Made by a program: the position numbers and the translations under genes
Notes under the pieces: model-generated
The model's input: the letters and a program-made list of their open reading frames with translations, nothing else
The model's database searches: none
Told to the model about the DNA's origin: nothing
Sequence record: NC_052661.1
DNA: 64,000 nt
Reading direction: 5' to 3' (one strand)
Origin: Escherichia phage ukendt
Shown: piece after piece, positions 1,321-28,437 of the stretch
Numbering within the stretch: position 1 is the first letter of the stretch
How the letters are laid out: every line of letters begins with the position of its first letter

Positions 1321-1810
1321 TTATAGGAAGTGTTACAAGAGGATCATCTTCTTCAATTTCCATCTTGTCATCTTCTGTTTCAATGAGAGTATTATGCACT
1401 TTGTGATAAGGGTTGTCAACACGTTTAAACTTATTCTTTTCTGTGCTGAAAAAACAATCTGGATCTTCTTCACCATCACCCCAACCTTGATTAGGATCTC
1501 CGTCAGATTGTTCTGTAGGGATTTCACCTGTAAAGTACTCTTCCAGCACCATAGCAATACCGTCTCTTGGATTTGAGGAATGCATTAAATCACAAACCTT
1601 ACCCCAATCCGTAGCCCATTCGAACCGTTCACGAACGCCATTTTCACCCTCTTTTCCAGAGAAAACACAACCATAACTATCATAGTTGCCATACATCTCT
1701 TCAATAACAACACCGTCCTTCAAAAGAAAGAGGTAGCAAGGTGATCCGTCGAAAGAAGTAGAAAGGGCAGCTTTGCCCGATTCTTTGCACAAAAAGCTAA
1801 AACAACCCAT
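1247..1810 (-). CDS. hypothetical acidic protein
   Basis: 187 aa ORF, Asp/Glu-rich C-terminal half; overlaps next gene by 74 nt. Confidence 0.45.
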   Translation of the reverse strand: MGCFSFLCKESGKAALSTSFDGSPCYLFLLKDGVVIEEMYGNYDSYGCVFSGKEGENGVRERFEWATDWGKVCDLMHSSNPRDGIAMVLEEYFTGEIPTEQSDGDPNQGWGDGEEDPDCFFSTEKNKFKRVDNPYHKVHNTLIETEDDKMEIEEDDPLVTLPISELQKITKEAYDLGFKIGRGGMRV

Positions 1811-2013
1811 TACAAACCCTCCTTCAGATTATCAAGAGCTACAGTGGTTTCACAAGAGTCTCCATAAGTTTTATGATGTTCCAGAAAAGCTTCGGGTCCA
1901 CCCCAGTCATTATCTTGTGTATTCCAGCCATCAATAAAAGCATCTTCAATGATTGTGATCAGTTCTTGTCGGGTTAACTGGATAATATTAGGATCGTTAT
2001 CGTAGTTAAACAT
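1810..2013 (-). CDS. hypothetical protein
   Basis: 67 aa ORF, start overlaps upstream stop. Confidence 0.5.
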   Translation of the reverse strand: MFNYDNDPNIIQLTRQELITIIEDAFIDGWNTQDNDWGGPEAFLEHHKTYGDSCETTVALDNLKEGL

Positions 2014-2179
2014 CTTCTTCCTCCTCTAAAATATGGAACCCGTAATTACAATAATCCTGAAAGGTTTCGTGCGCAAGATCTTCTATATCCTCTTGAGACA
2101 TATCATCTTCAATTTCGATATCCACAACCTCATTGCATCCACACCAAGCAGTTTCAATATTCACTCGTAATATTTTCAT
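2006..2179 (-). CDS. hypothetical small protein
   Basis: 57 aa ORF not in track; ATG at 2179 overlaps stop of upstream gene (TAATG), acidic C-terminus. Confidence 0.3.
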   Translation of the reverse strand: MKILRVNIETAWCGCNEVVDIEIEDDMSQEDIEDLAHETFQDYCNYGFHILEEEEDV

Positions 2180-2379
2180 TACTCCTCCTCCTCCTCATTG
2201 AAGTCAATATCTGCAAGGAGTTCGAATTTACGGAAGTTACGACAACCTTCATAAATATAACAATCACGACAAACTGCTAGAACACTTGGGGGATATATAC
2301 CTCCCATCGGTGCGAATCGTTTTTCGTCATCATAACGGACACCAATGTCTTCATCAATTATATAGATACGGATTCTCAT
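2179..2379 (-). CDS. hypothetical protein
   Basis: 66 aa ORF ending in EEEEE. Confidence 0.45.
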   Translation of the reverse strand: MRIRIYIIDEDIGVRYDDEKRFAPMGGIYPPSVLAVCRDCYIYEGCRNFRKFELLADIDFNEEEEE

Positions 2380-3488
2380 TTACCAAGCCCTCGTTTCACA
2401 GCAGCTACCATCCCGTCTTCCAGAGATTGAACTTCATTAATATAATCAACACGAGCAGCACGGGCTTCCGTATTGATGCGGTTAGTTTCTTCCAACATCT
2501 TAACCAAGTTTTCCTGATCGTGACGCAGAGTTTCAATATCCAACACTTGACGGTTAGCCAGTGCTGCTGCTTCGATCTGATTCTGTGTGGCAAGATCGCT
2601 ACCCAGTTTAATTGCCAGGTTAAATTCATCAAGAACGTTATTCTGCGTCTCTGCTGCTTTCATTTGACGTAAGCTCTCGATATACATTGAGAAGTTAGCA
2701 GAGTAAGCAGGAATAACATTATTTACTATGTTACGCGCAGATCGCATTAAGCTTGCAGAAACTTTTTGCATACCTTGTACACGCGGTCCCATTTGGACAC
2801 ACAGTAGGCGCAATGCTTTTAAATCTGCAATACGAATCTCCAGAAGATCCAAAGTATCCCGGATCACTTGTCGCTGTTCTACTGCATCTTCTGGAAGAGC
2901 AGCCAAAGCTTGTTCTTCTTTTTCATAGGTTGCTGTTAGAAGCTGCATATCTCGGTTCAAACTTGCAGCATATTGTCCAATAGCTTGATGTAGCTTTTCA
3001 AGATATACCAAGGAATCTTCTTCTTTGCGAATATCCATTTGAAGGTTCTTTACCAACTCTTCAATACGGTTATTAACATTATCAAACTCCCCGAACAGGT
3101 CTTCTTTCATACCCATAACTTTTTTAATGAGTTTAGTAATACCTTTGCTTTGTTTAATAGAGTTTGGATCAAGTTGTTTTGCCTGTTTAATCAAAGCTGT
3201 GAGTCGTTCACTCATCTGATCGCCTTGATTACTACGTTGATGTTTTAATACCTCGGCATTCAAGGAACGCAAGGTTGTTCCTGCCTCTGCCCCAATCTCT
3301 TCGATCTCTTGTCGGGTCATAGAAGGCAAAACTGGAACTTCTTGCGGTGCTGCTGGTGCGTAAACAGGACTGGCATCTAACACGCTTGGAGCGAATACAG
3401 ATTTACTTGCATCTGTTGTTGCAGCAAATACGCTCATTTCAGGCTTCTTCTGACCACCAGTAGCTGCTTTTAAAAATGGACTTGTCAT
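2376..3488 (-). CDS. TelA-like (toxic anion resistance family) coiled-coil protein
   Basis: 370 aa, long heptad-rich helical regions, Ala/Pro-rich N-terminus; family call from overall resemblance only. Confidence 0.4.
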   Translation of the reverse strand: MTSPFLKAATGGQKKPEMSVFAATTDASKSVFAPSVLDASPVYAPAAPQEVPVLPSMTRQEIEEIGAEAGTTLRSLNAEVLKHQRSNQGDQMSERLTALIKQAKQLDPNSIKQSKGITKLIKKVMGMKEDLFGEFDNVNNRIEELVKNLQMDIRKEEDSLVYLEKLHQAIGQYAASLNRDMQLLTATYEKEEQALAALPEDAVEQRQVIRDTLDLLEIRIADLKALRLLCVQMGPRVQGMQKVSASLMRSARNIVNNVIPAYSANFSMYIESLRQMKAAETQNNVLDEFNLAIKLGSDLATQNQIEAAALANRQVLDIETLRHDQENLVKMLEETNRINTEARAARVDYINEVQSLEDGMVAAVKRGLGK

Positions 3489-23241: not shown

Positions 23242-23406
23242 ATGATTTTAAACTTCATCATCAACTTGTGTTTGACATTGGGACTACTTTGTGCAATAGT
23301 ATCCCCTTTGGTTGGTGAATATTGTTCTGAATTGGCGATGTTTATAGTTCTTGGTGCGGCTATTGCTAATATGTTTGTCGCTGCGATTTGTATGTTGTGG
23401 GAATAG
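23242..23406 (+). CDS. small hydrophobic membrane peptide
   Basis: 54 aa ORF not in track; RBS AAGGAGAG. Confidence 0.35.
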   Translation: MILNFIINLCLTLGLLCAIVSPLVGEYCSELAMFIVLGAAIANMFVAAICMLWE

Positions 23407-23417
23407 GAGGGAAGTTT

Positions 23418-23774
23418 ATGAAAAAATTAATCTTAGCCACATTGCTGGCTACCGTAAGCTTCACCACTTACGCTCAAAAATTTGTAGCAGTTAAAACGGA
23501 TATTGGTAAAGATGTTGTGATCACAGGCAACAAGTTTTACTATACACCTGGGAATGGTGTTCTAGAAGAGTGCAAAGATGTTGAGGCATATACAGGAAAA
23601 GAAGATAACACGGAACGTCCTTTTTATTCGATTATAGCTACTTGCAAAAATGAAATAGTAGCTATTAAACAATACAAAGATGCCCCTGGAGGAGAATACT
23701 TATTAATCAAGAATATTAAGAGTGAAAAAACTGCAAAGTTTACAGTAATTATTTTAAAAGGAGAAACGTTCTAA
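23418..23774 (+). CDS. secreted protein
   Basis: Start at ATG 23418 gives signal peptide MKKLILATLLATVSFTTYA. Confidence 0.5.
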   Translation: MKKLILATLLATVSFTTYAQKFVAVKTDIGKDVVITGNKFYYTPGNGVLEECKDVEAYTGKEDNTERPFYSIIATCKNEIVAIKQYKDAPGGEYLLIKNIKSEKTAKFTVIILKGETF

Positions 23775-24913
23775 TGAAATACACTATTTTTGGAGATGTG
23801 GCTGTTGTAAATAAGGAATATGGTGTTGAAGCTAATAAACTTCCTGCTGGAGTTTGGGTTGTCAACTGCGATCCGCACGGTAACTACTCTTTAGTGCGTG
23901 GCGAAAGTTTCTCTCTTCCGAACACTCTTTATGGGGAAACTAAAGACCGCGCCGCACATGTTATTAAAACATTTGCTCGTCGTAGTAAAGAAGGTAAAAA
24001 TACTGGGGTGTTACTGACAGGGACAAAGGGCAGTGGTAAGACGATGTTAGCTAAACTGATTAGCATGTCCCTAATGTCCACAGAAGGTTTAGGTATTCCA
24101 ACCATTTTGGTGACACAGCCTTACACAGATGCTGGATTCTTAGAATTTATGAGTAAAATTACAGATCGCGCTGTTGTTTTATTTGACGAGTTTGATAAAG
24201 TGTACGCTAAGAAAGAAGATCAGGAAGCACTGTTGACCTTGTTAGATGGAACAGGAAGTGGAAATAAACTTTACATCCTCACTAAAAATAGTGGCTATAT
24301 CTCGGAATATTTTGTAAACCGTCCTAGTCGTATCTATTACAGTTTCAATTACGATAAACTGTCTAGTGAAACTATGTTAGATTACTTGGATAAGAACTTG
24401 GTAAATAAAAAACACGTAGATAACTTCCAACGTTTATGGGATGTTAGCACAGAGTTGTCTTTCGATGTTATTCAAGGCATTGTAGAAGAATTGAATTTCT
24501 ATCCAAAAATGACTTTTAAAGAATGTCTTGAAATGATGGGTATTTCTTTAGGGAACGATGCTAAATGGAATGTGGCTTCTATCGTAGCTAATGGCAAAAC
24601 CTTGAAGGTGAATTGGATCAATAACTGGCACGACTTCACCCCTACTAAGTTTTTGTCGGGTGCTTGTTCCCTGAACATCTATCTACAAAGTTTGAAAGAT
24701 GGTGAAGTGGAAGCAATGGAAACCAACAGTTATGTTATCCTGGATGAAGATGGTGATCCACATATTGATCTATGTGCAACGGCTGATGGTCTAACTTGTG
24801 ATCTGATTGAAGGTGGTAAGATTCTGGTTATGAGCACTACACCAGGAAACACTCTGCGAGTGGTGCTGGAGCCTGTAACACAACGTTCCACCACACTGGG
24901 TAGCGTGTTCTAA
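23774..24913 (+). CDS. AAA-family ATPase
   Basis: 379 aa; Walker A GTKGSGKT and Walker B VVLFDEFD. Confidence 0.55.
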   Translation: MKYTIFGDVAVVNKEYGVEANKLPAGVWVVNCDPHGNYSLVRGESFSLPNTLYGETKDRAAHVIKTFARRSKEGKNTGVLLTGTKGSGKTMLAKLISMSLMSTEGLGIPTILVTQPYTDAGFLEFMSKITDRAVVLFDEFDKVYAKKEDQEALLTLLDGTGSGNKLYILTKNSGYISEYFVNRPSRIYYSFNYDKLSSETMLDYLDKNLVNKKHVDNFQRLWDVSTELSFDVIQGIVEELNFYPKMTFKECLEMMGISLGNDAKWNVASIVANGKTLKVNWINNWHDFTPTKFLSGACSLNIYLQSLKDGEVEAMETNSYVILDEDGDPHIDLCATADGLTCDLIEGGKILVMSTTPGNTLRVVLEPVTQRSTTLGSVF

Positions 24914-24918
24914 TAAAG

Positions 24919-24940
24919 ATGCCCCGCAAGGGGCATTTCT
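24919..24940 (+). terminator. rho-independent terminator
   Basis: ATGCCCC-GCAA-GGGGCAT hairpin then TTCTT, after the AAA ATPase gene. Confidence 0.5.
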
Positions 24941-24954
24941 TATAGGATGAAATC

Positions 24955-26163
24955 ATGAGTAAAGCTAAAAGTTGGGAAGAATATAAAGCAGAATGCGAGA
25001 TCATAGCTCTCTCTAAAGGATATAAAATTTTAGGCCATAAAGAATGGAAAGGGTGTGAGACTAAACTCCTGATAGAATGTCCTGTGCACGGTGTATGGGA
25101 TACTTGTAAAATATCTAACTTTAAAAGTGGGAAGTCTTGCCCTTCTTGTGGTGAATTAACAAAAAGGGAGAAGAGAACGAAGAGCAGAGAGGACCAAGAG
25201 AAAGAGTGTGAAGAAGAAGCGTTAAAAAGAGGTTGGCGCTTCTTGGGTATCTACGGAGAATGGCTGAAAGCTAAAAAGACACGAGTAATCTTACGTTGTG
25301 ATAGGGGTCACGAGTTTAACACATCTACCATAGACAACTTTAAGAATAATAAACAAGGTTGTCCAGTTTGTCGTTTAGAGGATATAGGTAAACACAATAA
25401 GCTTTCAGACGATCAGCACATACAAGATTTCATGAGTACGGGTGTGTTTCCCGAAGGCACTACCTTCACTAATACAGGGGAAAAAGCTGGGAGGAGCGAA
25501 ATACTTTGGAGTGTATTTTGCCCTATCTGTGCTATAGACGAGTTTTCCAAAGCTGGGGTAGGAACGGGATATTTTATCGGTAGAGGTAGTTCATTAAAAC
25601 AGGGTATGCGCCCTTGTCGTTGTTCTGCCAGTTACAAATATTCTGAAGAAGAGATGACATTTAGAGCAAAAAGTGACGTAGAACGTAGAGGGTACGTGTG
25701 GTTGGGGTGGATCGGGAAAGCTTCTATACTTGGGGATTTTGAATATGGTTGCAAGGATCATGGGAAACATGTGTGTAGTGCTAACAATTGGTTAAATAAG
25801 GGGTGTGGTTGCCCTGGTTGTGCAGGTATGAATCAACAACAAGCCTACATTAATTATATTTACGATGAGCAAGATATTATCTGTGCACTGAAGTTTGGTA
25901 TTGCTAATAATAGTAATCGCCGTATCAAAGAACAAAATAGTCGTAATGTGTTTACTATGAAACAGAGCCAAGTGTGGCACTTCCCTACTGTGAAGCAATG
26001 CAAAGATGCAGAAAAGCGTTGTAAGCGTGTCCTTCACACGGAAGCAGTGAGCAAATATTCTATGCCAGATGGCTACACAGAGACAGTGGAGTTATCTTGC
26101 ATGGCATCAATACAAAATATTTATAAACTTTATGGTGGAACATTACAGGAGGAAACATGTTAG
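24955..26163 (+). CDS. Cys-rich repeat protein with four zinc-ribbon-like modules
   Basis: 402 aa; four repeats of G(Y/W)xxLG...CxxGHxF...GCPxC pattern. Confidence 0.5.
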   Translation: MSKAKSWEEYKAECEIIALSKGYKILGHKEWKGCETKLLIECPVHGVWDTCKISNFKSGKSCPSCGELTKREKRTKSREDQEKECEEEALKRGWRFLGIYGEWLKAKKTRVILRCDRGHEFNTSTIDNFKNNKQGCPVCRLEDIGKHNKLSDDQHIQDFMSTGVFPEGTTFTNTGEKAGRSEILWSVFCPICAIDEFSKAGVGTGYFIGRGSSLKQGMRPCRCSASYKYSEEEMTFRAKSDVERRGYVWLGWIGKASILGDFEYGCKDHGKHVCSANNWLNKGCGCPGCAGMNQQQAYINYIYDEQDIICALKFGIANNSNRRIKEQNSRNVFTMKQSQVWHFPTVKQCKDAEKRCKRVLHTEAVSKYSMPDGYTETVELSCMASIQNIYKLYGGTLQEETC

Positions 26164-26522
26164 TTGACGTTCAAATTATGCGCAACGAAAGAATGGACTT
26201 CTTTGAAGCAGTAGAGAAACATCTGATCCGATGGGACTATGAATTTGTTCCTGCTGGATGTGGACCAGTAGAGCATTTAGCGGAAGACGACGATGTATAC
26301 ATGATCATTCGTCAAGTGTACCAGACAGACCAGTGTGAAGAAACTCCCGAACTGATTTTGTTTGAGTGTAAAGATCTTGCAAAATATTTTGACTATGGCG
26401 GAAAAGAGGGTCATAATCTCTCCAGATACAATAAACGTCTACTTATCTTAGACTACATGCGGAACAACAAACACAAACTCATCGACGCAGAAGCAGTTTA
26501 TGGCTACTGGTGGATGGACTAA
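26157..26522 (+). CDS. hypothetical protein
   Basis: 121 aa ORF. Confidence 0.5.
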   Translation: MLVDVQIMRNERMDFFEAVEKHLIRWDYEFVPAGCGPVEHLAEDDDVYMIIRQVYQTDQCEETPELILFECKDLAKYFDYGGKEGHNLSRYNKRLLILDYMRNNKHKLIDAEAVYGYWWMD

Positions 26523-26535
26523 CAAAGGAGAAACT

Positions 26536-26715
26536 ATGGCACGTTTAGCAGATCATGAAATCTTTAAACCTATTCTGAACCACTATGATGAACTTAAAGC
26601 AGTGTTGGATTGTTATAGAGAGGATGAAGAACGTTTGGAAGTCAATCTTAAGATAGTTCTGATGAAAGCTTTTCAAGACGGGCAAGCTAAAGTTTTAGAA
26701 GGCATGAAAAAATGA
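26536..26715 (+). CDS. hypothetical protein
   Basis: Start refined to ATG 26536 after AAAGGAG. Confidence 0.45.
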   Translation: MARLADHEIFKPILNHYDELKAVLDCYREDEERLEVNLKIVLMKAFQDGQAKVLEGMKK

Positions 26716-27254
26716 GAATAACTGATGAATATGTATTCTTCTTTTCACATAAAGATGTGTTTAGTAATTGGTATATTGCACCCTTTACAGAAACTGAACC
26801 AGGTTACAATGAGACTTTCTGTTGTGTTGAGCAATATATGATGTGGCGTAAGGCTTTGCTGTTCAAGGATCATGCGATTGCAGCAGCTATCCTTGATCAC
26901 TCAACTATACGTGACAACGAGAGGAAACAAGCATACTACAAACGTATGGGTCGAGCGGTATCTGGTTTTAATAATGATATGTGGGAAGAGAACCGTGAGC
27001 GTATTGTTATGCGAGGCTTATGCTTGAAATATGTACAGAATCCAGATTTGTATGCAGACTTACACCTTTACCAATACAAAACGTTTGTTGAAGCAAGCCC
27101 CTACGATAAGGTTTACGGAATTGGAATGGGGATGTATGAACCAGGGGTGCTAAACCCTGCTACCTGGAAAGGGCAGAATCTTTTAGGCAAATATCATAAT
27201 AAACTGATCGAAATACTCTTCCAAGACAAAATACCGCAAAGACGATATTTGTGA
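26712..27254 (+). CDS. NADAR (YbiA-like) domain protein
   Basis: 180 aa; FFFSHKDVFSNWY...CCVEQYMMWRKA matches the NADAR signature. Confidence 0.6.
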   Translation: MRITDEYVFFFSHKDVFSNWYIAPFTETEPGYNETFCCVEQYMMWRKALLFKDHAIAAAILDHSTIRDNERKQAYYKRMGRAVSGFNNDMWEENRERIVMRGLCLKYVQNPDLYADLHLYQYKTFVEASPYDKVYGIGMGMYEPGVLNPATWKGQNLLGKYHNKLIEILFQDKIPQRRYL

Positions 27255-27310
27255 TATTTTAACTTTTTTCATTTTTAGAACAAAGGTGTCACTTTGTAGC
27301 ACAGAAATAA

Positions 27311-27345
27311 GGCTCCTACAGCACCGTAGAGAGCCTGTTATTTTA
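27311..27345 (+). terminator. rho-independent terminator after the NADAR gene
   Basis: GGCTCCTAC...GTAGAGAGCC hairpin followed by TGTTATTTTA. Confidence 0.45.
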
Positions 27346-27496
27346 TCCTATACAAACCCTTGTCTTTTTCAGTTTGCATCACTAGGATTCGATCTGAGTG
27401 GGTTCCTGAAGGTCTGCCAATAAGATTAAAGGTTATCTCAAATTCCCACTACCTATTATCTCAAAAATCCCTCAAATTATTTAAACTTTTTAAGAA

Positions 27497-27536
27497 TTTA
27501 CAAAAGTGAAAGTTGAAAACCAAAATTTAAAGTTTA
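27497..27536. repeat. direct repeat, copy 1 (TTTAAAGTTTA-containing unit)
   Basis: TTTACAAAAGTGAAAGTTGAAAACCAAAATTTAAAGTTTAG, imperfectly repeated at 27636. Confidence 0.5.
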
Positions 27537-27635
27537 GGAAAATTATCTTAAAATGTTAGATACAAAACAAAACTCAAAAGTCAAGGAAAATTTTAAAAAT
27601 TTTGCGCGCCCACAGTATTTAAAGTTTTTTTGCTT

Positions 27636-27675
27636 TTACAAAAATGAAAGTACAAAAGCAAAATTTAAAGTTTAC
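27636..27675. repeat. direct repeat, copy 2
   Basis: TTTACAAAAATGAAAGTACAAAAGCAAAATTTAAAGTTTAC. Confidence 0.5.
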
Positions 27676-27722
27676 AAAAATTTTTATGCAGGTGAAAATG
27701 AGAAGAGTTCTCATATGGAAAT

Positions 27723-27745
27723 GCAAATGATAATGATTCGCATTT
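27723..27745. promoter_or_regulatory. Fur-box-like operator (site A)
   Basis: GCAAATGATAATGATTCGCATTT, about 14 of 19 to the Fur consensus, 60 bp upstream of site B. Confidence 0.4.
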
Positions 27746-27761
27746 AAGTTTATAAATGAGA

Positions 27762-27803
27762 TTGATTCTTATTTAATAAGGTAAATGATAATCATTCTCA
27801 TTT
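27762..27803 (+). promoter_or_regulatory. promoter with Fur-box-like operator across the -10 (site B)
   Basis: TTGATT, 18 nt, TGATAAT; palindrome AAATGATAATCATTCTCATTT matches the Fur consensus GATAATGATAATCATTATC at 16 of 19 positions. Confidence 0.5.
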
Positions 27804-28021
27804 AGAGAATGACGCGCAGGGGCGGTGTTTGTCTCGCGCTCCCGTGTCCCCTCGCCATGTAATAAGAATAACAGATCCAGCCAGGAAAGCAAGAGATTAT
27901 TTTATCTTTACATTTCTTTACAAATATATAGCGCCCAGCCTACCGGCGATCAACCTTCCAACCAGTGCCTCTGGTATGTTAGCCCCGCCTTTACGCCGTG
28001 GGGTGGCGCTTCCTCTTCTGT

Positions 28022-28056
28022 ATGTAAAACAGTATAAGCCCGATCCCTGGGCTTGT
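28022..28056 (-). promoter_or_regulatory. sigma70-like promoter reading leftward into non-coding DNA
   Basis: On the minus strand: TTGACA, 17 nt (AGCCCAGGGATCGGGCT, itself a hairpin), TATACT. Confidence 0.4.
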
Positions 28057-28061
28057 CAAGA

Positions 28062-28328
28062 TTATTTTTTGTTTTCTTGCCAGGATAGGACACCTAACCA
28101 AAAATACATATCGCCCCGCGCCCCTGGTGGTATCTTGCTTTCCCCGCCGCCACTGCAAGCCCATAGATAACCATTTGCGAACGTATCAAAATGATCTATC
28201 TCTTCCACCTTATGATCGCCCAGGTTGAGAACGGTTTCAACCTTTAAGCCCGTTGCGCTTGCTACCTGGTGCACCGTGCCGCCTTGCCAGCCCAATGAGT
28301 GCATAAGGTGTAATGTAGTATTTGTCAT
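28062..28328 (-). CDS. hypothetical protein (divergent gene at left edge of cassette array)
   Basis: 88 aa ORF in GC-richer DNA; GC hairpin about 30 nt upstream of its ATG. Confidence 0.4.
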   Translation of the reverse strand: MTNTTLHLMHSLGWQGGTVHQVASATGLKVETVLNLGDHKVEEIDHFDTFANGYLWACSGGGESKIPPGARGDMYFWLGVLSWQENKK

Positions 28329-28437
28329 GGTATCGCCCTTTCTTTGATGTGCGCCCTGGTTGGCGCGGTAGAAAGATGATAGCCCTTTCTTTTATATATA
28401 GCAAGCAAAAAGAAAATAAAAAAGATTGAAAAAGTGA

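Follow-up and report, generated by a model that had tools for sequence, protein, structure and literature searches.

Organization of the locus

The window analyzed here, a 64,000-nucleotide stretch of Escherichia phage ukendt (NC_052661.1), showed 97.8% nucleotide identity to the Escherichia phages iGC_PHA_EC001 and ESCO5, and on sequence its source is assigned to Phapecoctavirus, as a phAPEC8-like E. coli myovirus. The initial annotation of the region had described an AAA ATPase of 379 aa followed, after a terminator, by a 402-aa protein with four cysteine-rich repeats. Both open reading frames were recovered exactly, at 23774-24913 and 24955-26163 of the plus strand, the former with Walker A and Walker B motifs and the latter with four Zn-ligand modules and four Pfam CapR stretches. 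The features of the locus are as follows:

23774-24913, plus strand: AAA+ ATPase gene, 379 aa (ORF list; Pfam PF00004; phrog_2376)
24919-24936, plus strand: GC-rich terminator-like stem-loop ATGCCCC-GCAA-GGGGCAT, then TTTCTTAT, between the ATPase and nuclease genes
24943-24946, plus strand: Shine-Dalgarno-like AGGA, 8 nt 5' of the ATG at 24955 (read from the sequence)
24955-26163, plus strand: predicted CapR x4 - T5orf172/GIY-YIG endonuclease gene, 402 aa (ORF list, profiles, model)
24967-25152, plus strand: predicted Zn module 1, aa 5-66, ligands C42, H45, C62 and C65 (CapR 6.8e-8, 33 bits; AlphaFold2 model)
25186-25374, plus strand: predicted Zn module 2, aa 78-140, ligands C115, H119, C136 and C139 (DUF4379 treble-clef 6.9e-4)
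25408-25626, plus strand: predicted Zn module 3, aa 152-224, ligands C189, C192, C221 and C223 (CapR 5.7e-10)
25639-25824, plus strand: predicted Zn module 4, aa 229-290, ligands C266, H269, C286 and C289 (CapR 1.1e-3)
25837-26160, plus strand: predicted C-terminal T5orf172/MUG113-type nuclease domain, GIY-YIG fold, aa 295-402
26157-26522, plus strand: downstream ORF, 121 aa, phrog_24465 (ORF list, phrog match)

The Walker A motif of the ATPase is GTKGSGKT (residues 83-90) and its Walker B motif is VVLFDE (residues 134-139). The protein matched Pfam AAA (PF00004) with 29.8 bits (cutoff 21.2) and phrog_2376 ATPase with an E-value of 9e-111, while classical AAA proteins such as Rix7 and VCP matched it weakly. 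A stem-loop of 7 pairs, 5 of them G-C, lies in the 41-nt intergenic region that follows, and to this extent the terminator proposed earlier is borne out; its T tract is weak, however, and the scan called a terminator on the minus strand only. The phages carrying a 486-aa allele of the nuclease have an identical hairpin at the locus, and the other allele classes and phi92 have a different one, AAACCCGC-TTCG-GCGGGTTT, in the same place. On the 3' side, the ATG of the 121-aa ORF overlaps the stop codon of the nuclease gene and its ribosome-binding site falls within the last nuclease codons (GGAGGAAACATGTTAG), an arrangement by which the two genes are predicted to be translationally coupled. An Rfam search of the window returned no match.

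Predicted zinc modules and nuclease domain of the 402-aa protein

Scanned as a whole, the 402-aa protein matched Pfam CapR (PF21817) in four stretches with 80.6 bits (cutoff 24.2; E 9.6e-23), and by this profile the repeat signal of the four predicted modules is far above chance. When the modules were scanned singly, module 1 (33 bits) exceeded the CapR cutoff of 24.2 and module 3 gave a full-length match (39.7 bits, profile positions 2-67), while module 4 reached 19.5 bits against the same cutoff and module 2, one of the four CapR stretches when the whole protein was scanned, matched the DUF4379 treble-clef profile instead. The motif G(Y/W)xxLG...GH...GCPxC given in the initial annotation holds for modules 1, 2 and 4, whose ligands follow the C-x2-H ... 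C-x2-C variant that characterizes the treble clefs of DUF723 and DUF4379, but not for module 3, which belongs to the CxxC...CxC subtype. In this module C189-x2-C192 and C221-x-C223 are separated by 28 residues, an arrangement of the canonical CapR type, whose published signature is CxxC ...(24-26 aa)... CxC (Netter et al., 2021; PMC8096241). Cysteines C115, C136 and C139 of module 2 and C189, C192 and C221 of module 3 are at least 90% conserved in homologues, and C289 of module 4 is invariant in 70 of them.

In the AlphaFold2 model module 1 is formed by a helix, three strands and a helix, and the protein is predicted to contain four treble-clef-like zinc modules that fold independently and are connected by helical linkers. 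Neither self-BLASTP of the protein nor a direct-repeat search of the DNA of its gene detected internal repeats, because the modules are too diverged for such tools; they are ancient and recognizable by profile or ligand pattern only. A tblastn search of the window with the protein sequence returned no paralogue. Searching the PDB by sequence yielded nothing but a chance match to a RING finger (E 0.6), and Foldseek of the full model against the PDB gave nothing significant, the top match being to tandem dsRBD proteins (E 1.2e-3, probability 0.44), which probably comes from the common helix, three-strand, helix topology; no solved CapR structure was found by either search. CapR has been described as a DNA-binding zinc finger of the CxxC...CxC type whose Cys-to-Ser mutants lose DNA binding (PMC8096241). 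The earlier suggestion of a four-module, zinc-ribbon-like and probably nucleic-acid-binding protein holds good.

Residues ~295-402, which the initial annotation had passed over, hold no repeat and instead show the nuclease motifs Y298-I-N ... K313-F-G315 ... R323 ... E353 ... E376. The isolated domain scored slightly below the cutoffs of two profiles, T5orf172 (PF10544; 19.4 vs 20) and MUG113 (PF13455; 20.6 vs 22.3), while the nuclease scores of its homologues phi92 gp222 (20.2), P0012 (22.4) and P0013 (20.1) were above cutoff, and a T5orf172 match at E<0.01 was obtained for 25 of 70 homologues. NCBIfam gave no match for the nuclease. The AlphaFold2 model (pLDDT 94) gives the domain a beta-beta-alpha-beta-alpha-alpha topology, and the core of the GIY-YIG fold is present in this predicted structure. 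Over the 70 homologues no part of the protein is better conserved than the nuclease motifs, with K313, G315, R323, E353, G373, E376 and T377 invariant and Y298 and N300 conserved in at least 90%. The residue set expected of an active site is thus retained, namely the strand 1 tyrosine (Y298), the helix 1 arginine (R323) and two acidic residues of the metal-ligand type (E353 and E376), from whose conservation a catalytic role for each may be inferred.

Membership in a described endonuclease class

The repeat architecture had been regarded as unusual and as belonging to no named family, a view that has to be abandoned: the modules are Pfam CapR, related to the DUF723 and DUF4379 treble-clef fingers, and the protein falls into the described CapR-T5orf172 class, as indicated by CapR, by phrog_681 'endonuclease' (E 4.5e-75) and by homology to ICP1 gp165. 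Alignment of the family profile with ICP1 ORF165/gp165 by hhalign gave a probability of 100% (E 4e-55) over 368 columns that include the nuclease domain, and tblastn linked the protein to the ICP1 'putative homing endonuclease' (E about 1e-16). Moreover, a deposited protein annotated 'endonuclease' is 100% identical to the 402-aa protein, and its homologues are named 'CapR homology domain-containing protein' in UniRef and 'endonuclease' at NCBI. The architecture of repeated CapR domains followed by T5orf172 has been described before (Netter et al., 2021, PMC8096241; Barth et al., 2023, PMC10448857), and several fingers of the CapR, DUF723 or DUF4379 kind are common in T5orf172 homing endonucleases, which lie at recombination boundaries (10.1101/2023.03.23.533998 = PMC10448857). 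As a deposited and annotated representative of a class of phage endonucleases already described, the protein does not constitute a new family. For this particular locus, the supplements of Barth et al. do not list phAPEC8, phi92, ESCO5 or the protein accessions and include Mt1B1_P17 for its RepA_N nuclease only, and a literature search combining Phapecoctavirus and homing endonuclease returned nothing on it.

Variation of the locus among related phages

Comparison with nine relatives revealed flanks of 96-100% nucleotide identity, the ATPase gene included, on either side of a nuclease gene of 16-70% identity. The left break in identity lies exactly at the ATPase stop codon and the right one either within the nuclease domain or where the gene stops, beyond which the 121-aa ORF is again 98-100% identical among relatives. 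The nuclease gene is a sharply bounded and highly divergent cassette set between near-identical flanks. Its alleles at this locus have 3, 4 or 5 modules and the wider homologue family has 2-6, with members in unrelated contexts and phage lineages: between ssb and frd in GEC-3S (Straboviridae), in KB57 (Vequintavirinae), in ICP1 and in the jumbo phage RaK2. Such a hypervariable cassette fits the turnover of endonuclease alleles.

Occupancy was counted with a junction query over 69 Phapecoctavirus records, and the nuclease locus was occupied in 68 of them. The same synteny was observed in the sister genus Justusliebigvirus. The lone joined site, that of EP57, is not a clean empty site, as the deletion removes the ATPase stop codon and fuses two ORFs; its interpretation as an ancestral empty site was rejected on account of this fusion and of the record itself, which is 130 kb long and full of short CDS calls. 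Classical homing would lead one to expect many empty sites, and sporadic presence and absence with intact empty sites was not found among the 69 records. The gene looks fixed, since 68 of the 69 records are occupied and the synteny extends to Justusliebigvirus, a pattern that fits a domesticated function equally well.

Discussion

The domain architecture and the allele pattern of the locus suggest that the 402-aa protein is a free-standing GIY-YIG endonuclease of the T5orf172 branch and of the homing type, with alleles that replace each other at a fixed locus, a reading to which we assign a probability of roughly 0.75. According to this proposal, each module would hold one Zn ion and contact a few base pairs, so that the string of modules would read a long asymmetric DNA site and the tethered nuclease would cut close to it. 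In a mixed infection the break would be repaired from the co-infecting genome, and the genome that was cut would thereby acquire the nuclease allele, at times together with its flanks. Because break repair would copy the nuclease allele in this way, alleles with different module sets could displace one another at the fixed locus, and the AAA ATPase would merely be a conserved gene beside which the nuclease element sits.

The closest known counterparts are the T5orf172 homing endonucleases of ICP1 (gp165, gp174 and others), which share the N-terminal tandem CapR-type fingers and the C-terminal T5orf172 domain and are likewise encoded by free-standing genes at a break in nucleotide identity (Netter et al., 2021; Barth et al., 2023). 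Homology to gp165 extends along the whole length of the 402-aa protein, although identity to the ICP1 endonucleases is only about 21-28%, and the 402-aa protein differs from them in having four intact fingers, three of which use C-x2-H...C-x2-C ligands. Besides, the ICP1 genes vary in presence, whereas almost all relatives carry a gene at the Phapecoctavirus locus. The GIY-YIG homing endonucleases I-TevI and the T4 Seg proteins have a domain order that is reversed with respect to the 402-aa protein, with its C-terminal nuclease. Their DNA binding relies on a zinc finger, a minor-groove helix and a helix-turn-helix instead of a tandem zinc-finger array, and where they have the canonical GIY and YIG tyrosine motifs, the 402-aa protein has the T5orf172 variant (YIN...KFG). 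The T5orf172 domain is also combined with an exchangeable DNA-binding module in ICP1 Odn, a RepA_N-T5orf172 nuclease that cuts the origin of the PLE satellite, and in the Odn-like RepA_N-T5orf172 nucleases of Inny, Muut and Mt1B1_P17. These coliphages belong to the same subfamily as the window phage, Stephanstirmvirinae, but their nucleases are encoded by a different gene, carry RepA_N instead of CapR fingers and have a satellite-origin target that is known or inferred.

Proposed by Barth et al. as anti-satellite nucleases, the Odn-like proteins lend some weight to an explanation in which the 402-aa protein is a domesticated targeting nuclease that is kept for the benefit of the phage, may be directed against competing phages, satellites or the DNA of the host, and has fingers that vary through an arms race over targets and not through selfish homing. 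The near-constant occupancy of the locus, its synteny over two genera, the invariance of the catalytic-type residues and the joining of deeply divergent DNA-binding arrays to a far more conserved nuclease domain are all consistent with it. However, the turnover of homing endonuclease alleles predicts the same pattern, the explanation names no satellite, host or competitor as target, the protein has no RepA_N or other borrowed domain that would point to one, and EP57, if its assembly is correct, suggests that the gene is dispensable; on balance we consider domestication unlikely. The CapR modules could also belong to a sequence-specific DNA-binding regulator, mainly a repressor, with an inactive or secondary nuclease domain. 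CapR domains act as transcriptional repressors in the capsid repressor of PLE, the V. cholerae phage satellite (PMC8096241), and in the anti-CRISPR CasPRs (bioRxiv 10.64898/2026.02.23.707548), I-TevI offers a case of autorepression, and the predicted coupling of the gene to the next ORF agrees with such a role. PLE CapR has the CapR domain in common with the 402-aa protein, whose module 3 bears its CxxC...CxC signature, but it is a single 15.5-kDa domain acting as a repressor and without a nuclease, as opposed to four modules and a nuclease domain. Similarly, the CasPRs are phage proteins with one or two CapR domains and sequence-specific DNA recognition that, unlike the 402-aa protein, have an AP2 domain and no nuclease, occur in Bacillota prophages and silence the transcription of cas genes. 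Given that the known repressors of the CapR type lack T5orf172, and that conservation of the 402-aa protein is highest in the nuclease motifs and the predicted nuclease fold is intact, a principally regulatory function is very improbable.

The initial annotation, by grouping the ATPase with the repeat protein, implied that the two belong together, and the fact that they are neighbours in the same orientation in every Phapecoctavirus and Justusliebigvirus genome inspected would agree with a two-gene system resembling those of defence or anti-defence, in which the ATPase loads or regulates the nuclease. The evidence from the locus speaks against this pairing, which appears the most implausible of the alternatives: a hairpin lies between the genes, the identity break falls exactly there, with the ATPase constant (96-100% identity) while nuclease alleles of less than 60% identity are swapped, homologous nucleases of other phages (GEC-3S, KB57 and ICP1) have no ATPase neighbour, and PADLOC found nothing for the nuclease, its matches for the ATPase being weak and of the generic P-loop kind. 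The ATPase is a conserved syntenic neighbour without a demonstrable functional partnership with the nuclease.

Beyond the homing endonuclease that we favor, a broader and doubtful possibility is that the locus, instead of being a drifting selfish element, houses in Stephanstirmvirinae a reprogrammable cassette for DNA targeting that is never vacant. In this cassette a conserved GIY-YIG head would be joined to exchangeable arrays of 2-6 fingers, upheld by diversifying selection because each allele would cut genomes carrying other alleles or competing mobile elements. If true, it would represent a system of inter-phage exclusion or allelic warfare and, at the same time, a natural modular zinc-finger nuclease code.

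The locus provides a clean natural example of the general proposal of Barth et al., with a nuclease gene placed exactly at a boundary of genetic exchange, where the DNA-binding array differs between alleles in the number of its modules and in its sequence, and the catalytic head and the flanking genes are nearly constant. Should the modules act additively in reading DNA, the many natural alleles found at this one locus would constitute a panel for the recognition code of CapR fingers, and they would also permit testing the displacement of endonuclease alleles in mixed infections.

Genomic setting

Escherichia phages iGC_PHA_EC001 and ESCO5 share 97.8% identity with the region 23300-27300 along its entire length. 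In all, the region was matched by 69 phage records, virtually all of them from Phapecoctavirus, phAPEC8-like myoviruses of the subfamily Stephanstirmvirinae; the small, closely packed ORFs and the G+C content of about 39% are consistent with this origin. At a larger scale, both the sign of the GC skew and the coding strand change at about 21250 and 56000, from a minus-strand gene block (up to ~21.2 kb) to a plus-strand block (21.3 to ~56 kb) and back to the minus strand, indicating divergent and convergent transcription units. The features of the locus are:

23774-24913, + strand, ATPase gene (379 aa)
24919-24936, hairpin ATGCCCC-GCAA-GGGGCAT, then TTTCTTAT, in the 41-nt ATPase-nuclease spacer
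24955-26163, + strand, endonuclease gene (402 aa)
26157-26522, + strand, downstream ORF (121 aa)
26712-27254, NADAR-domain protein gene

A predicted CapR-T5orf172 endonuclease

The initial annotation had described the 402-aa product as an unusual four-repeat protein not recognised as a named family. The observation was confirmed, as Pfam recovered four stretches of one family, the CapR homology domain (PF21817; E = 9.6e-23, whole protein), but the interpretation is only partly supported, since the family matches, an alignment with ICP1 gp165 and the published description of such enzymes place the protein in an already described type, CapR fingers plus T5orf172 (Netter et al., 2021; Barth et al., 2023). 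It matched phrog_681 'endonuclease' (4.5e-75), its homologues are named 'endonuclease' (NCBI) or 'CapR homology domain-containing protein' (UniRef), and tblastn reached ICP1 'putative homing endonucleases' (~1e-16). The family profile aligned with ICP1 ORF165/gp165 over 368 columns including the nuclease domain (probability 100%, E = 4e-55), gp165 being among the ICP1 CapR-domain T5orf172 homing endonucleases (Netter et al., 2021, PMC8096241; Barth, Dunham and Seed, 2023, PMC10448857). Barth et al. (PMC10448857) report CapR, DUF723 or DUF4379 fingers in 87% of T5orf172 homing endonucleases, frequently more than one per protein, strung like beads, and place the genes for such enzymes at genetic-exchange boundaries. 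The 402-aa protein is already known both in kind and in sequence, an identical protein having been deposited and annotated.

The modules were also scanned separately, one by one, with the following results.

Modules of the 402-aa protein (residues; best match in separate scan; E value; ligands)
Module 1; 5-66; CapR; 6.8e-8; C42/H45/C62/C65
Module 2; 78-140; DUF4379 treble-clef finger; 6.9e-4; C115/H119/C136/C139
Module 3; 152-224; CapR, full-length; 5.7e-10; C189/C192/C221/C223
Module 4; 229-290; CapR; 1.1e-3; C266/H269/C286/C289

The proposed G(Y/W)xxLG...GH...GCPxC pattern describes modules 1, 2 and 4, which carry C-x2-H ... C-x2-C ligands, but not module 3, which is of the canonical CapR subtype CxxC...CxC. 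Module 3 shares this signature with the PLE satellite protein CapR, on which it was defined and whose DNA binding is abolished by mutation of the four cysteines (PMC8096241). In the AlphaFold2 model (pLDDT 94, 70-sequence alignment), modules 1, 2 and 4 each fold as a helix followed by three strands and a further short helix; the second ligand pair lies where the following helix begins, as in a treble clef. Strands and helices are arranged differently in module 3, and helical linkers separate the modules.

The non-repeat part missed initially, residues ~295-402, showed sub-threshold matches to MUG113 (6.9e-4) and T5orf172 (1.6e-3) and GIY-YIG topology in the model. The corresponding region passed the T5orf172 cutoff in the homologues phi92 gp222, P0012 and P0013, and 25 of 70 homologues matched at E<0.01. 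Across the 70 homologues the sole invariant residues were C289 (module 4) and K313, G315, R323, E353, G373, E376 and T377 (nuclease domain), with Y298 and N300 at least 90% conserved; by this measure the nuclease motifs are under the strongest constraint in the protein.

Divergent alleles between conserved flanks

When the window was compared with nine Phapecoctavirus loci at the nucleotide level, the flanks (23488-24884 and 26137-27254) were 96-100% identical, apart from separate downstream mosaic patches inside the right flank (26534-26634, 26734-27034). From precisely the ATPase stop codon onward, identity was only 16-70%, and it was restored at ~25870-25966, within the nuclease domain, in UP17, Ec-G1, phAPEC8 and KKP3954, and only at the nuclease gene stop in AV126, WPEC6 and nieznany. 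Alleles at this locus have three (330 aa), four (394-402 aa) or five modules (486 aa), the wider family ranging from two to six (263-562 aa); at least 11 clusters (90% identity) had at least 55% identity to the window protein, whose own allele was found in six records only. The terminal codons (..QEETC) are retained in every allele because they encode the Shine-Dalgarno GGAGG of the next ORF and its start, which overlaps the nuclease stop (ATGTTAG, 26157-26163).

The upstream gene encodes the expected 379-aa Walker A/B ATPase (GTKGSGKT, residues 83-90; VVLFDE, 134-139), matching Pfam AAA (29.8 bits, cutoff 21.2) and phrog_2376 'ATPase' (9e-111), with generic classical AAA proteins as its only PDB relatives. 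The spacer hairpin, whose T tract is weak, is plausibly the stem-loop terminator proposed after it. The hairpin counts with the variable part of the locus: two hairpin types occupy this position, in different allele classes. The ATPase is a conserved neighbour of the nuclease and not its partner, since a recombination boundary and the hairpin lie between the two genes, related nucleases in other phages lack an ATPase neighbour, and no defence-system model matched the nuclease.

Homing, fixation or domestication

For an empty-site search of the 69 records, the query combined 200 nt from the 3' end of the ATPase gene with the 200 nt that immediately follow the nuclease gene; its halves were contiguous only in Escherichia phage vB_EcoM_EP57 (OR544956.1), the only relative without the endonuclease gene. 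EP57 was rejected as a clean empty site: its deletion begins three codons ahead of the ATPase stop, ends 14 nt short of the nuclease stop and fuses the ATPase, minus its last three codons, in frame to the 121-aa ORF (501-aa CDS, 1561-3066). It could be either genuine or an assembly artefact, the record being 130 kb, ~20 kb shorter than its relatives, with many ~100-nt CDS calls. Because the sole joined record is a fusion deletion and the sister genus is also occupied (phi92 gp221 ATPase, gp222 CapR x4-T5orf172, gp223 NADAR), the classical presence/absence pattern of homing was not seen. Other hallmarks of homing were found, namely unrelated insertion contexts (GEC-3S between ssb and frd, KB57, ICP1), the sharp identity break at the nuclease gene and allele replacement. 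In the T4-like Krischvirus GEC-3S (NC_025425.1, 2408-3586), a distant CapR-T5orf172 homologue (25% identity) is flanked by the gp32 ssb gene and frd and has its own annotated promoter and a terminator upstream, a set-up typical of a free-standing homing endonuclease.

In our reading, these sequence patterns reflect a homing-type endonuclease gene that became fixed at the locus, where its alleles now replace one another. Less probably, the protein has a domesticated role, such as that of an exclusion nuclease or of an anti-satellite nuclease like Odn, the RepA_N-T5orf172 nuclease of ICP1. Beyond the domain composition, fold, conservation pattern and cassette behaviour documented here, the named families suggest how a fixed homing-type enzyme would work: each module would hold one Zn ion, the array would read DNA additively, the tethered GIY-YIG head would cleave it, and alleles would spread via break repair during mixed infections.

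Downstream region

The NADAR-domain protein (PF08719, 3.4e-35; PADLOC PDC-M42C, 3.5e-35) is labelled 'GTP cyclohydrolase II' in several GenBank records, and its gene contains a mosaic patch (26834-26934) with 66-69% identity to four relatives and 97-100% to five others. In the non-coding stretch 27255-28437, a ~22-nt palindrome with the pattern AAATGAnAnnnATTCnCATTT occurs four times at 29-nt spacing (27696-27804), and the last copy (GTAAATGATAATCATTCTC, 27781-27799) fits the E. coli Fur-box consensus with three mismatches (expected 0.04 per window); the four may form an operator cluster for host Fur or a phage repressor. A 72-nt direct repeat (27473-27544 and 27611-27682, 82% identity) lies in AT-rich intergenic sequence, both copies with promoter-like TTTACA-N17/18-(C/G)AAAAT boxes, and is followed by a G+C-rich segment (27806-27860). 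No Rfam family was found anywhere in the window.

Significance

If the locus is a maintained, reprogrammable targeting cassette, this would add a modest upside to an otherwise low significance.
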